A stretch of DNA of 55,550 nt from Escherichia phage CSP1C. The position numbers and the translations under genes were made by a program. The DNA lies in sequence record PQ202980. The stretch is one strand, 5' to 3'. This document shows positions 19,598 through 50,468 of the stretch, one piece after another (position 1 is the first letter of the stretch; each line of letters begins with the position of its first letter). The notes beneath the pieces are model-generated. The model was not told the DNA's origin and searched no databases. It saw nothing but the letters and a program-made list of their open reading frames with translations.

Positions 19598-19629
19598 GCT
19601 AATATACCCCTTTAAGGTTTTACACGCGG

Positions 19630-25795: not shown

Positions 25796-26382
25796 TTTAA
25801 TACCTCTTTAGACTGTTCAATTTCTAATGCACGCTGTGCGGATGCAATAATATCTTTCAAATCTTCTACCAGACTTTTATGACCACGTTCGCCCGGCTGC
25901 AACGCCTTTTTAATCAAATGTTGTAAAGCTGGGTTAGTTGTTTTCCAAGCTTCCAAGACATCATACACGTCCACGATGCATTTTACAACATTGCCGTTTT
26001 CATCTTTACCATAAATAATTTTCTGATATTTATTCATGGGAATTTTAGATGGTTCATATTTGGTAAAAACTGCACCATTAAATGTATTACTTATGCTTAT
26101 TCCAGAAGAAGGTTGATGGTACACTCCGGAGCGAGTGTTTTCGCTGGCTTGTTTGACGTAATCATCCGCAACGATATATCGCCAGGCTATAATATCTTGA
26201 ACTTTATAAGGGCTATATTCATCCATAGCTGAACGCCCTTCTATAGCCCAATCCCATCCATGTAATAAATTCTTAACGTGTGTGCCGTTGCGCAAACGAA
26301 CTTCAAACTTCTCATTACGAAGAAAAATAGGCATTCCTTTACCGTCGTGTTGGTGCCAAATTTTATTAAGATTATCTTTCAT
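25792..26382 (-). CDS. hypothetical protein embedded in 7-deazaguanine cluster
   Basis: About 196 aa; ATG 26382 couples to upstream stop, own stop overlaps queD ATG; no recognisable catalytic motif. Confidence 0.5.
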   Translation of the reverse strand: MKDNLNKIWHQHDGKGMPIFLRNEKFEVRLRNGTHVKNLLHGWDWAIEGRSAMDEYSPYKVQDIIAWRYIVADDYVKQASENTRSGVYHQPSSGISISNTFNGAVFTKYEPSKIPMNKYQKIIYGKDENGNVVKCIVDVYDVLEAWKTTNPALQHLIKKALQPGERGHKSLVEDLKDIIASAQRALEIEQSKEVLK

Positions 26383-27692: not shown

Positions 27693-27881
27693 TTAGAAAC
27701 CTTTAAGGCTAATATTAAGATTAACGACCACTTGTTCAACTACATCATCAGATGTCATCTGACGCTTATGAATTTCAAGCTCCGAATGTATGTTCTTGGA
27801 TGCAGCACGACAGATAGCGTCATTCAGCTCGTCTTGTAAACGTTGCATCTTCTGCATAAGAATCACAGTCTCTTCATTCAT
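27693..27881 (-). CDS. hypothetical small protein (paralogue of 27874..28086)
   Basis: 62 aa, SD AAGGTG; shares ELN.AI..A....EL.I pattern with neighbouring gene. Confidence 0.4.
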   Translation of the reverse strand: MNEETVILMQKMQRLQDELNDAICRAASKNIHSELEIHKRQMTSDDVVEQVVVNLNISLKGF

Positions 27882-28086
27882 CTTCTACACCTTTAATATC
27901 ACAAGGATTGATTGTTACAGTTGACATCACAATTGGATGATTGCGTGCCCCGATTGTACTAACGTGATTAATATCTAATTCTACATGCACTCCCTGCATG
28001 GTAGCGTGAGCAATTGCAGAATTAAGTTTTTCTACCAGCTCAGTGATCATTTCCTGATGCTGTTTCGCTTCTTCCAAAGTGATCAT
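27874..28086 (-). CDS. hypothetical small protein (paralogue of 27693..27881)
   Basis: 70 aa, SD GAAGGTG; alternative ATG at 28050. Confidence 0.4.
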   Translation of the reverse strand: MITLEEAKQHQEMITELVEKLNSAIAHATMQGVHVELDINHVSTIGARNHPIVMSTVTINPCDIKGVEDE

Positions 28087-28342
28087 TTCTTTTCACCTTC
28101 ACTAATGTTTGTTTATAATCCATACCTTCAAGGTCAACTTCTGCCATTTCACAAAAGTTATCATCTTCCCAGTATGATGTCCATTTAGTTTGACTGTCCA
28201 TCAACGTTGGCTCATACTCGAATCCGTAAACTGTACCGTCTTGATCCGTAGCCAGCCACCGTACCCATTCAGGGACATCAAGCTTATTGCCAAAGTATTC
28301 AACTTCTTTAGTATGAACAACCTGACTTAATACACGCATCAT
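28040..28342 (-). CDS. hypothetical protein, member of 3-copy paralogous family
   Basis: 100 aa; VPEWVRWLATDQDGTVYGFEYEPT and EVDLEGMDYKQTL shared with ORFs at 49334 and 50172. Confidence 0.45.
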   Translation of the reverse strand: MMRVLSQVVHTKEVEYFGNKLDVPEWVRWLATDQDGTVYGFEYEPTLMDSQTKWTSYWEDDNFCEMAEVDLEGMDYKQTLVKVKRNDHFGRSETASGNDH

Positions 28343-29115: not shown

Positions 29116-29919
29116 TTACAAGCCGTTCAGGGCTTCCGGTACTGGTACAGGTACGCGACCAGTCACACCATTAAATTTCTTCCAGCGTGCATACTGGGTT
29201 TTAACGGTATCTTCGTTCAAACCATGGCGACCAGCCAGGTTCAGAACATAAGAGATCGGAGCAGGCTGACCCAGCGTAGCGCTAATCTGGTCCATCAGAG
29301 CCCAGGCACGACCGCAGGAAGTTTCCGGTTGTGGACGACGAACACCGTTCTGTTCCGGCATACGATTAGCTTCTTTTTCTTTCTCGCGGAGCTCTTTAGC
29401 GCGTGCTTTTTCCGCTTCTTTTTCTGCCTGTTTTGCAGCACGGATCTTGTCTTTGAAGCCTTTAATAGTAGCTTCCAGACCATCCACCAGACCCTGGGCA
29501 GAAGTTACAGCACCGGACAGGTCTTCACCTTTAGACTTCTTAACGACAGCTTTCAGCTCTTTCAGAGCTTCTTTAATGGTCTTCAGGTTTGCAGATCCCT
29601 GAGTTTCTGCTTCCGTGATTTGTTCAACAGTGCTTTCGTCGGTGACGGTAGCTAAAGAGTTTTTCAGGATTTCAGCAGCGTTAGCAATCGCATTAAATTT
29701 GTTTTCCGCTTCAGTGCGGATTTCAGCTTGTTTCTTTTCAGCGGCAGCTTTTTTCTCTGCTTCTTTTTTCTCTTTTGCTACGCGTGCAGCTTCAGCGGCA
29801 GCGGCTTTCTTAGCTTCTGTATCATTCACAGTAGCTTCTTTCTTTGCAGGTTTAGCAGATTTTGCAGCGGCAGCAGCGGCAGCAGCGGCAGCGGCTTTTT
29901 TATCTTCAATGTTGCTCAT
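29116..29919 (-). CDS. Ala/Lys-rich low-complexity protein with conserved C-terminal domain (histone-like / DNA-binding candidate)
   Basis: ATG 29919 (track start 29928 is GTG); polyAla run plus KKAAAEK repeats; C-terminal TVKTQYARWKKFNG domain shared with ORF 45820..46434. Confidence 0.5.
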   Translation of the reverse strand: MSNIEDKKAAAAAAAAAAAKSAKPAKKEATVNDTEAKKAAAAEAARVAKEKKEAEKKAAAEKKQAEIRTEAENKFNAIANAAEILKNSLATVTDESTVEQITEAETQGSANLKTIKEALKELKAVVKKSKGEDLSGAVTSAQGLVDGLEATIKGFKDKIRAAKQAEKEAEKARAKELREKEKEANRMPEQNGVRRPQPETSCGRAWALMDQISATLGQPAPISYVLNLAGRHGLNEDTVKTQYARWKKFNGVTGRVPVPVPEALNGL

Positions 29920-47466: not shown

Positions 47467-47516
47467 GCGAGCCCATGCACTTTACAAAATATTTTTATAA
47501 AAAGTGCAAAAAGGTG

Positions 47517-47560
47517 TAGACACATGATCGGTCTAGCACTACTATATACACATACCGCAA
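47517..47560 (+). promoter_or_regulatory. promoter/operator-like element TAGACACATGATCGGTCTAG
   Basis: Palindromic AGAC-N-GTCT element with GATC core about 60 nt upstream of the ATG at 47597; near-identical copy at 48357. Confidence 0.45.
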
Positions 47561-47596
47561 GGGTACTACAAATTAACTAATTCACGGGGGTACAAA

Positions 47597-47860
47597 ATGG
47601 TCCGCATCCTGGAACGTTATAAAAACGAAGCTACTGGCGCTATTGCATTCAAACGTATGTTAGTAAAACAAATCGACGGTTTATACCGTGTTGTTAAAGA
47701 AGTCGATTACGGCAACGGCGCAGGGGTGAGCACCACTATCGTCCCGGGCATTAAAGCGTATAAAACTTTAAAAGGTGCCGAGAAAGCCTTAGCCGCCTGG
47801 AAACCTGCTCGTTATCAAATGTCTCGTGTCGAAGGGCTTATGCAGGAAGGTAAAATCTAA
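47597..47860 (+). CDS. hypothetical protein
   Basis: 87 aa, first gene of the + strand block. Confidence 0.5.
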   Translation: MVRILERYKNEATGAIAFKRMLVKQIDGLYRVVKEVDYGNGAGVSTTIVPGIKAYKTLKGAEKALAAWKPARYQMSRVEGLMQEGKI

Positions 47861-47925
47861 GTTTGTTTATACAATGGGCATTAATACAGTGCCCATTAAG
47901 CTAACTAATCATATCGAGGTGTATT

Positions 47926-48210
47926 ATGTCCATCGTTACTATGTCGTTCTTCGACCATTGCAATAACGAAAAACAAATTATTGTTAACCTGCAAAAAGGG
48001 CTGGTTATCGCACGCAATGCTAACCGCCAATGCATCGCGCTAACCGATTTTGCTTTCCGCCTTAACGTGGACAACACCACCGCCAAAAATATCGTTCACG
48101 ATACAGCGATGGAAGCCGCTCATGCTGCGAAGGATAAAGGTATCCGCGCAGCACGCGAAATCATGCACAAAGCGCTCGGCATCACGTTCTTCGTTGGCAT
48201 TAAGGGGTAA
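47926..48210 (+). CDS. hypothetical protein
   Basis: 94 aa ORF. Confidence 0.45.
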   Translation: MSIVTMSFFDHCNNEKQIIVNLQKGLVIARNANRQCIALTDFAFRLNVDNTTAKNIVHDTAMEAAHAAKDKGIRAAREIMHKALGITFFVGIKG

Positions 48211-48359: not shown

Positions 48360-48400
48360 ACAACATGATCGGTCTGGTGGATACTACACACATCAACCAA
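48357..48400 (+). promoter_or_regulatory. second copy of TAGACA-CATGATCGGTCT promoter/operator-like element
   Basis: TAGACAACATGATCGGTCTGG about 60 nt upstream of the ATG at 48418. Confidence 0.45.
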
Positions 48401-48417
48401 ACAACGGGGTAAACAAA

Positions 48418-48657
48418 ATGCGTAGTTTCAAATGTGTAAGCGTAAACGATAATGCTAAGGCTAGTGCTAAGGGTCTGTTCACAGTAGGTAAAGTGTATGA
48501 CTTCAACATGGAAAGTTATATACACATAACCCTCACGGGCGTAATGTTCGGCGACGTTGGTGCTGTACGCTGCGATTTAAACAAGTACACGGAAAAGGAA
48601 TATGCTCTTATCAGCCGCTACACGGGCGAGCCGTTAGCTGTGTTCCATGCAGCTTAA
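48418..48657 (+). CDS. hypothetical protein
   Basis: 79 aa from ATG 48418; the track's upstream extension is rejected. Confidence 0.45.
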   Translation: MRSFKCVSVNDNAKASAKGLFTVGKVYDFNMESYIHITLTGVMFGDVGAVRCDLNKYTEKEYALISRYTGEPLAVFHAA

Positions 48658-48729
48658 GCTATAACGCACACAGCGCCACGCTAGCGAGCTAATGTACATA
48701 GGCAATGGTAATGCATTAGCTCGGGCGAA

Positions 48730-49091: not shown

Positions 49092-49343
49092 ATGTGCGAC
49101 TCCAGTGCAAGCACCACGACAAACTCCTCCAGCAATGTGGTTACAGAGGTAAATGCAATGCGATTAGGTCCATATCGCGGCTATTATGGTCGTGCTGCAT
49201 GGAATGACGCTACTCAACGTTTTGAAGGCTGGATTATCTGCCCGGAACGTGTTAAATTTCACTCCGTAAAAGAGAAAAATATCGTTCTTAATTTTCAAAA
49301 ATGTGTCACTAAATATGTAGAGGAGCAAGAAGAATGCGTGTAG
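49092..49343 (+). CDS. hypothetical protein
   Basis: 83 aa from ATG 49092 with strong SD AAGGAGG. Confidence 0.45.
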   Translation: MCDSSASTTTNSSSNVVTEVNAMRLGPYRGYYGRAAWNDATQRFEGWIICPERVKFHSVKEKNIVLNFQKCVTKYVEEQEECV

Positions 49344-49585
49344 GGGAGGGTGAAAAGGTTGTTAACTATTTCGGGACTCAGGTTATAGTACCTGCCTGGG
49401 TTAATTGGCTCGCGGTTGATAAATGTGAAGAGCTCTATGCTTACGAAAACGAGCCTTATATAGACGAATGCGACGATTACGACAAATGGTATGAGGATAC
49501 GGGTAAATCCATCTTTATTGGCGAGTTTCCTTTCGAAGAAGGTTGTTGGGTAAATTCTTTAGTTAATGTTAGTTCGGAGGCTTAA
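49334..49585 (+). CDS. hypothetical protein, member of 3-copy paralogous family
   Basis: VPAWVNWLAVDKCEELYAYENEPY matches ORFs 50172 and 28040. Confidence 0.45.
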   Translation: MRVGEGEKVVNYFGTQVIVPAWVNWLAVDKCEELYAYENEPYIDECDDYDKWYEDTGKSIFIGEFPFEEGCWVNSLVNVSSEA

Positions 49586-49876
49586 ATGCGTGTAGAAGAG
49601 ATTGTTGAAGGTAAAGAGTATCGTTTACTGACCGATATTGGTGGTGTTGGGTATACTCCTGATGATGCAGCTTGTTTTAACGTCCTTCCGCAAGGCGCTA
49701 TCGTAACAGTTAACAAGGTTGTTACCGATTTATACAGCGTTCATGACGGCAGATGGCCACATGCAGTTATTGTTACCTTCGGTAAAGATGGATATGTGGA
49801 TCTTGACGGCGAAGATGACGCTTACGAAGTTGCTTATACCGGTCTTGTAAGCCCCAATTTCCTGGAGGAAGTGTAA
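49586..49876 (+). CDS. hypothetical protein
   Basis: 96 aa ORF. Confidence 0.45.
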   Translation: MRVEEIVEGKEYRLLTDIGGVGYTPDDAACFNVLPQGAIVTVNKVVTDLYSVHDGRWPHAVIVTFGKDGYVDLDGEDDAYEVAYTGLVSPNFLEEV

Positions 49877-49926
49877 TTATCAATCTATAATGGGCTCTAC
49901 GGAGCCCTTAATTATCTGGAGGAGAT

Positions 49927-50169
49927 GTGTTTCCGCGGAATGGTTTAAAGTGGACTGCAAGGGATCTTGCTTTGCTAAAGGTTAACGCTGGAAAGATATC
50001 GGCGGAAGAAATAGCTTACTACCTTAGAAGAGACGTTGAATCTGTACATATCAAAGCAAGTAGGCTAAAGTTGTCCTTAGTAACAAACAGATGCAAGCGC
50101 GGGCACGAACGGGTGTACCGCAAAGGGCGCTGGCGCTGCAATGAATGCCGTAAACTTAAAGGATACTGA
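49927..50169 (+). CDS. putative small DNA-binding protein (HTH-like plus C-terminal Cys/His zinc-ribbon-like motif)
   Basis: 80 aa; C-terminal CKRGHERVYRKGRWRCNEC. Confidence 0.35.
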   Translation: MFPRNGLKWTARDLALLKVNAGKISAEEIAYYLRRDVESVHIKASRLKLSLVTNRCKRGHERVYRKGRWRCNECRKLKGY

Positions 50170-50171
50170 CT

Positions 50172-50468
50172 ATGTTATATTTAGGAATGGACGAAACTGG
50201 ACACGCAATTCCTTCTGTTAACAAAGAAACGCAAGTATTTACAGACTATTACGGGTCTGCTATCCCTGTAGAGCCCTGGGCTAACTTTATCGCTGTAGAT
50301 GCAGACGGTAAAGTACATTGTTATGATGCAAAACCTTCTTGCTATGAATCTGGTAAGCAATGGATGCTTGGCGTATACGGTTTGCATGTGCGCTACTGCG
50401 GTGAAGTTGACCTTGAAGGTGTGGACTGGCGCGATACGCTAAGGGAGATTAAACATGTCCGCGGCTGA
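50172..50468 (+). CDS. hypothetical protein, member of 3-copy paralogous family
   Basis: VEPWANFIAVDADGKVHCYDAKPS and EVDLEGVDWRDTL shared with ORFs 49334 and 28040. Confidence 0.45.
   Translation: MLYLGMDETGHAIPSVNKETQVFTDYYGSAIPVEPWANFIAVDADGKVHCYDAKPSCYESGKQWMLGVYGLHVRYCGEVDLEGVDWRDTLREIKHVRG

Follow-up and report, generated by a model that had tools for sequence, protein, structure and literature searches.

Several groups of small phage proteins offer the nearest described comparisons for three short open reading frames (ORFs) that an earlier note had grouped as a paralogous family in a 55,550-nucleotide stretch of DNA from Escherichia phage CSP1C (sequence record PQ202980), the whole of which we call the window. 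We use the gene names CSP1_043, CSP1_045 and CSP1_080 (below also 043, 045 and 080), taken from KY982929.1, the record of Cronobacter phage CSP1 (Seuratvirus), which is 100% identical to the window by megablast. This siphovirus resembles CAjan and Seurat, belongs to the Queuovirinae and carries a folE-queD-queE-queC-dpdA 7-deazaguanine cluster. The closest described entity is PHROG 1972, whose profile covers all three proteins essentially full length, matching 045 at residues 8-80 (expect value E 3.7e-16), 043 at residues 4-97 (E 7.5e-28) and 080 at residues 1-87 (E 6.6e-24). PHROG 1972 is, however, a sequence cluster only, without function, fold or domain definition. The satellite PHROGs 11307, 23941, 21375, 19703 and 26007 were also matched, all of them labeled 'unknown function'; in these the same domain recurs at the N- or C-terminal end of longer proteins.

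Among functionally characterized systems, the DNA mimics Ocr, ArdA and Arn, together with AcrIC9, resemble the CSP1 proteins in being small, strongly negative products of accessory genes with mosaic distribution. The DNA mimics differ in that no homology connects them to the CSP1 proteins, Pfam matching neither the three proteins nor 95 members of their family and the PDB containing no sequence or fold match. A link to AcrIC9 seen with one profile (A2; E 0.25 over 35 residues) was rejected: it was gone at E<=10 when the 95-sequence profile A3 was used, and the folds differ. AcrIC9 has an alpha/beta fold of three antiparallel strands and three helices (PMC10478522), whereas the model of the CSP1 domain is all-beta and does not reproduce this three-strand, three-helix arrangement. 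Tad2/DUF2829 sponges are a further comparison, and the CSP1 proteins have no match to DUF2829 at Pfam E<=1. Phage nucleotide-pool enzymes touch the family in two ways, since phage contigs fuse dCMP deaminase and MazG/MazZ-type pyrophosphatases to three to six copies of the domain and since CSP1_080 itself is embedded in the GTP-to-preQ0 pathway operon, but the CSP1 proteins are stand-alone and have no enzyme domain. The domain also resembles short aromatic beta-hairpin modules such as WW domains and choline- or cell-wall-binding repeats, in its Trp/Tyr-rich beta-hairpins with a 'D.DG' or 'nG' turn and in its putative use as a repeated binding module.

Three divergent members of a large domain family

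The three ORFs diverged long ago within a very large family of small, acidic, Trp-rich all-beta domains. CSP1_045 (49334..49585, + strand, 83 amino acids), CSP1_043 (50172..50468, + strand, 98 amino acids) and CSP1_080 (28040..28342, - strand, 100 amino acids, or 99 in GenBank, where the second ATG at 28339 is used) are each annotated 'hypothetical protein' in KY982929.1. BLASTP relates 043 to 080 with E 5e-14 (33% over 72 amino acids), 045 to 080 with E 4e-11 (44% over 45 amino acids) and 045 to 043 with E 1e-6. When each protein was compared by phmmer with the 932 stop-to-stop ORFs of the window, the other two alone were matched (E 1e-4 to 3e-11), the next match standing at E ~1. The family has exactly three members in the window, and the ~4.7 kb of the genome outside the window consist of the large terminase, portal and capsid genes only.

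The kinship that the earlier note had read from shared motifs, proposing a multiple alignment as the check, is statistically significant in every pair, and the ORFs lie where it had placed them. Its core motif is almost correct, with VP(A/E)W present in 045 and 080 but replaced by VEPW in 043. The second motif, EVDLEG(V/M)D(W/Y)..TL, which it had assigned to two of the copies, is indeed common to 043 and 080 alone. The most divergent copy is 045, which lacks the VDLEG motif and has VDKCEE in place of the 'D.DG' turn, losing a Gly that is otherwise ~94% conserved in the family. The description of a three-member paralogous family is correct in that the three are true homologues, but the family is not specific to this genome: each CSP1 copy is nearer to dozens of foreign clusters, from unrelated phages, than to its genome mates, which rank between 38th and 159th among its matches. 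That ranking rules out a recent duplication within the genome, and the CSP1 copies are ancient paralogues or independent acquisitions.

Chance similarity, or ORFs that are non-functional remnants, might be suspected given that the ORFs are short, that every record annotates them as hypothetical and that the last ~15 codons of 080, predicted to be disordered, overlap CSP1_081 (start 28086) by 47 nucleotides. The statistics exclude this, with E down to 5e-14 between the copies and from 1e-16 to 1e-28 against PHROG 1972, and so do purifying selection, a confident fold prediction and thousands of homologues; we regard the probability of such an explanation as negligible.

A profile search of 1.84 billion representative sequences, the kind of check that the earlier note had called for, recovered a large family of at least 1,661 clusters (at 50% identity) at E<=1e-3, of which 237 reach E<=1e-10. 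By tblastn the family is present in 220 phage records, always annotated as hypothetical, among them Seuratvirus, Nonagvirus, 48-kb Klebsiella siphophages, rV5-like phages, Kuravirus, T4-like phages and jumbo phages; the phages that carry it infect mainly Gram-negative bacteria. Most members are stand-alone proteins, ~80 amino acids long. The core spans ~60 amino acids and reads P.W..(W/Y)(L/I)A.D.DG...Y...P, followed by a Trp and then by (D)W..(T/S)L, and the stand-alone phage members add an N-terminal beta-hairpin (K.V.YFG..l.V). In the near-invariant columns (G, A, D, G, P, W, W and L) the residues are those of turns and of a core, and none is typically catalytic. Stand-alone members (n=95) have a median isoelectric point (pI) of 4.66 and a median charge of -6; the corresponding values are pI 5.0 and net charge -6.2 for 043, pI 4.53 and -10.2 for 080, and pI 4.05 and -13.5 for 045.

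Structure prediction, also suggested in the earlier note, gave a confident all-beta domain. The AlphaFold2 model of 043, built with 95 sequences, has a predicted local distance difference test score (pLDDT) of 90.8 and a predicted template-modeling score of 0.82. For 080, modeled with 26 sequences, pLDDT is 77.8 overall, ~90 for residues 11-80 and below 50 for residues 87-98. The two models are independent and agree in strand order, with seven beta-strands and then a short helix. Foldseek found 37 phage-protein matches in BFVD at E<1e-3, with template-modeling scores up to 0.74. None of the 37 has a described function: 36 are uncharacterized or unnamed, and one is named only 'DUF4314 domain-containing'.

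Searches of curated resources were negative for the domain itself. Fusion-partner domains aside, Pfam had no family match for the three proteins, 20 long members, the 95 members of alignment A3 or four bacterial members; NCBIfam had no match for the family or for the bacterial subfamily described below; and the PDB had no sequence or fold match other than the rejected AcrIC9 link. A literature search found no paper that mentions PHROG 1972, and the three ORFs are not discussed in the passages covered from the papers on Seuratvirus, CAjan and phiHS1. For the tandem arrays, enzyme fusions and bacterial subfamily reported here we found no earlier description; the genes themselves are unremarkable members of a family already catalogued under the label 'unknown function'.

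Tandem arrays, enzyme fusions and a bacterial subfamily

Domain architectures were drawn from the best 150 of the 1,661 clusters, and a further profile search with the 95-sequence alignment A3 yielded no new ones. Fifty-nine of these 150 clusters are longer than 125 amino acids, nearly all of them containing two to nine tandem domains. One example is a 1,003-amino acid protein encoded at 8001-11012 of L006, a phage-like 166-kb metagenomic contig, with nine tandem domains and a C-terminal extension common to P0037. Several family genes per genome are likewise carried by XT73, Ab2712, MP1 and contig L006, and because other phages also have several such genes, the three copies of CSP1 are a local case of the family's general habit of multiplication.

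The only recognizable fusion partners among the best 150 clusters are nucleotide-pool enzymes. They comprise dCMP deaminase in P0039 and P0102 (E 1e-23), a MazG-like pyrophosphatase at the C-terminus of P0033 (phrog_1992, E 4e-31) and, in P0047, PF18909, the N-terminal domain of dATP/dGTP diphosphohydrolase (E 4.5e-16). All four fusion proteins are on contigs of phage-like gene content. At 4164-6203 of L004, a 679-amino acid protein has six domains fused to dCMP deaminase and adjoins SPL/radical-SAM, metallophosphatase and NinG genes. Genes of nucleotide metabolism that neighbor family members include queE/queC, dUTPase, nicotinamide mononucleotide adenylyltransferase with PnuC, primase/helicase, and DHFR/RdgC.

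To look for cellular relatives, a degenerate DNA pattern of the core motif was scanned over representative bacterial genomes. The scan returned 120 loci, ~85 of which are true family members by profile, and 75 encode one conserved protein of ~65 amino acids with the consensus lP.WV.WLAQDADG.WWGYE.EP...GWYENEVGR...L...dW..tL. A search of bacterial genomes with alignment A4 returned no relative. The subfamily occurs in sulfur-oxidizing Beta- and Gammaproteobacteria, namely Thiobacillus, Thiohalobacter, Ectothiorhodospiraceae, Thiotrichaceae and related metagenome-assembled genomes; its loci fall in the range L017-L136, with examples at L057 1367-1642 (Thiohalobacter thiocyanaticus), L052 7703-7999 (Thiobacillus denitrificans RG) and L088 4536-4733. 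The search pattern does not account for the homology, because keeping the motif and shuffling the remainder lowered the median score from 33 to 12.8 bits and because hhalign aligned the phage and bacterial alignments over 63 columns with 97.6% probability (E 3.9e-12). The bacterial proteins have a pI of 4.77, with five Trp and two Tyr invariant or near-invariant, and are annotated only as hypothetical. Their gene neighborhoods vary but look like housekeeping rather than prophage regions, with neighbors that, by eye, we take to be GreB-like, glutaredoxin-like, PBP4-like, TrkH-like and UbiD-like.

One fixed copy and two exchangeable slots

CSP1_043 is the sole family member fixed across Seuratvirus, and it is under purifying selection. 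It carries the full domain, with both the N-terminal hairpin and the C-terminal GEVDLEGVDW..TL motif, and orthologues at 78% identity or more are found in ~31 of 34 related phage records. Its DNA is ~95% identical to that of phage Seurat, and the ratio of nonsynonymous to synonymous substitution rates (dN/dS) is 0.06-0.29, or 0.06-0.13 among close relatives. The orthologue in phiG7 (L137 1727-2026) is a mosaic whose N-terminal half is nearly identical to CSP1 and whose C-terminal half is strongly diverged, which suggests intragenic recombination in the region.

The other two copies, 045 and 080, are exchangeable or optional cassettes, in which alleles diverged by ~50% in DNA sit within ~95%-identical flanks or the slot is empty. 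The number of copies in Seuratvirus varies from one to three, and Bas21 (GottfriedDienst) has a single member, the 043 orthologue, in its whole genome. The earlier note had argued that maintenance of three diverged copies points to a selected function; purifying selection is indeed seen (dN/dS 0.06-0.29 for 043 and 0.2-0.66 for 045), but the trio as such is not maintained. In the Nonagvirus JenK1 there are two copies, located upstream of primase/helicase.

CSP1-type 045 alleles (at least 83% identity) occur in six records only, other Seuratviruses having a ~47%-identical allele at the same position. In the comparison with Seurat DNA, identity falls to 50-65% exactly inside the gene, with flanks above 90%. 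A profile search of the whole Bas21 genome found the 043 orthologue only, leaving the 045 slot without a family member. Both 045 and 043, which the earlier note had called early-region copies, belong to a + strand series of small ORFs that precedes the lysis cassette; scans for promoters and terminators around 49-50 kb gave counts at chance level, and an early-region location is at most putative.

Several smaller features lie in or near this slot. In phiG7 an annotated homing endonuclease (L137 232-705) is directly upstream of it. Between 045 and 043 of the window, an ORF at 49927-50169 (+ strand, 80 amino acids, GTG start) is absent from the annotation of KY982929.1; it has a Cys-rich tail and a helix-turn-helix-like stretch that matches phrog_323 ('transcriptional regulator, D5-like', E 2.4e-6) and phrog_11013, and a terminator-like hairpin (49892-49907) is found just upstream of it. 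The ~240-bp segment that contains this ORF is missing from Seurat, so that it constitutes an indel between 045 and 043. The 9-mer ATGCGTGTA, encoding Met-Arg-Val, occurs exactly three times in the window, at 28331-28339 (-), 49334-49342 (+) and 49586-49594 (+), which are the gene starts of CSP1_080 (at its second ATG), CSP1_045 and the unrelated CSP1_044. Chance expectation is 0.41 occurrences, and three copies were reached in 1 of 100 shuffles; the 9-mer may be a microhomology at cassette junctions, or a coincidence.

CSP1_080 is the copy that the earlier note had placed inside the deazaguanine cluster, and the queE-queC interval does contain it, in the orientation of these two genes. The stop codon of queE and the first ATG of 080 overlap in the sequence ATGA, a Shine-Dalgarno-like GGGGTGG precedes this ATG, and a terminator-like hairpin and a promoter-like site upstream of queE form the only such pair to stand out in the scans. 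This layout suggests that 080 is co-expressed with queE, with which it is probably co-translated. CSP1-type alleles of 080 (at least 90% identity) occur in only seven records, with ~55%-identical alleles elsewhere, and identity to Seurat DNA drops to 40-65% at 28322-28099 between flanks of ~95%.

This arrangement would be expected if 080 were an accessory subunit of the dPreQ0 DNA-modification pathway, a proposal favored by the same-strand position, the ATGA overlap and the terminator- and promoter-like pair, but one that we now consider highly improbable. In CAjan dPreQ0 takes the place of ~32% of G, and this replacement depends on dpdA (PMC6884629); in both CAjan and Bas21 queE is followed directly by the next gene, with no family member in the queE-queC interval. 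Because CAjan DNA is modified without a family gene in that interval, 080 is dispensable for the modification and is not a constant companion of the cluster in phages making dPreQ0. Furthermore, Nonagvirus copies are near primase and outside the cluster, most family members belong to phages whose matched regions, where examined, have no deazaguanine genes, and the slot is filled by ~55%-identical alleles in clusters that are otherwise near-identical. None of the three proteins is homologous to an enzyme or described accessory protein of the deazaguanine pathway, with no Pfam or NCBIfam match at E<=1 and PHROG matches that are all of unknown function. We conclude that 080 is an optional, exchangeable cassette that modification does not need; its reading as an essential component is largely refuted, and the tempting inference of a missing pathway component falls with it. 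The placement in the cluster, which the earlier note had taken as a sign of function, carries little weight given the empty slots in CAjan and Bas21 and the location of the Nonagvirus copies.

The queE-queC gap of CSP1 contains two other small ORFs, CSP1_081 (27874-28086, - strand, 70 amino acids) and CSP1_082 (27693-27881, - strand, 62 amino acids). A weak BLASTP match between them (E 6e-5 over 26 amino acids) hints that they may be a second pair of small paralogues. The 081 orthologues of Seurat and CAjan, as well as phrog_26258, are labeled 'radical SAM domain-containing protein', an implausible label for a protein of 70 amino acids; CSP1_081 itself is annotated 'hypothetical protein'.

Candidate functions of the domain

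In general terms the domain is quite probably a non-catalytic binding module, because it is small, acidic and all-beta, has no conserved residues of catalytic type, has been multiplied repeatedly and is under purifying selection. Its partner may perhaps belong to nucleotide or DNA metabolism, as a protein or, with lower likelihood, as a nucleotide-derived ligand; we favor this class of partner, with considerable doubt, because all fusion partners that could be identified are nucleotide-pool enzymes and several members adjoin such genes. The module, itself no enzyme, would tether or modulate enzymes of nucleotide and DNA metabolism, holding its partner stoichiometrically, and different copies would offer different surfaces. 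Taken as a whole, a family of adaptors of this kind is our best explanation, tentatively held. Several observations weigh against it. The nucleotide link consists of four fused clusters among the best 150 plus anecdotal neighbors, and the early and middle regions of phage genomes are rich in nucleotide genes anyway. About ten other segments appended to long members had no match in Pfam or in a PHROG scan of ten non-repeat segments; most stand-alone members belong to arrays of small, anonymous ORFs; no neighbor is constant in the bacterial subfamily; and our literature search turned up no paper on the family. Sharp allelic replacement, and presence or absence among near-identical phages, are what would be expected of genes for host interaction or anti-defence, and less of a metabolic adaptor.

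This last pattern leads to the main rival, in which the proteins would be binders for anti-defence or host takeover, small acidic decoys that are possibly DNA-mimic-like and whose divergent copies would cover different host targets. We consider it unlikely. In its favor, the proteins have a strongly acidic character (pI 4.05-5.0, against a family median of 4.66) and their genes stand among small accessory ORFs in arrays; of the three slots, two undergo cassette-like replacement with sharp borders and presence/absence among ~95%-identical genomes, and the slots are in a mosaic region that in phiG7 holds a homing endonuclease. To our knowledge every phage genus in the sampled matches is strictly lytic, which we also count in its favor. 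Yet the proteins have no similarity to known anti-defence proteins, the fixed 043 is conservative (with the low dN/dS among close relatives given above), and fusions to dCMP deaminase and MazG would not be expected of a pure decoy, nor would a conserved chromosomal subfamily of sulfur-oxidizing bacteria in housekeeping-like contexts. A different possibility, which we judge improbable, is that the domain binds a nucleotide or base as a sensor or sponge, the ligand being a dNTP, a preQ0 precursor or an immune signaling nucleotide, with tandem arrays raising capacity. That all recognizable fusion partners act on nucleotides fits such a role, as do the translational coupling of 080 to QueE, the high copy number in cis and in trans, and the unusually many conserved Trp and Tyr residues (five and two in the bacterial subfamily). 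These aromatics, however, may just be the core residues of a beta domain of very small size, which moreover is acidic and has no conserved basic residues for phosphates, and there is no match to DUF2829/Tad2 or to any other Pfam family at E<=1. The adaptor explanation can be stretched further, to an undescribed domain superfamily that would act as a multivalent phage adaptor docking or regulating nucleotide-pool enzymes, or else as a new class of acidic anti-defence binders, with a vertically inherited cellular counterpart; in this extended form it would be a doubtful claim.

Whichever function applies, the family is among the larger pieces of phage 'dark matter', comprising at least 1,661 clusters, and a genome or a single protein often contains multiple copies. 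A domain definition, a fold predicted with confidence but without a solved relative, a few enzyme fusions and a cellular subfamily now make it tractable. If the domain does have a ligand, its identification would provide an annotation for over 1,600 protein clusters in one step, and a binding partner of the fixed 043 would give the first functional handle on the whole family. Seuratviruses of the BASEL collection are available for such work, and CAjan has already been edited with CRISPR-Cas9 (PMC6884629).

Two minor observations concern the genome at large. The window is the reverse complement and a circular permutation of KY982929.1, with window position 1 corresponding approximately to record position 19629 and the alignment crossing the record ends; two BLAST placements of the window on the record have offsets one base apart, a hint of a 1-bp indel or of a difference at the junction. 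Further islands of sharp divergence between CSP1 and Seurat, in DNA that is otherwise ~95% identical, are found at about 29343-29702, 26060-26359, 47500-48210 and 48390-48690. By position, the first falls within CSP1_078, the 'FtrA-domain' gene, and the second around CSP1_084/085, and the last two are among the small ORFs upstream of the family copies 045 and 043.

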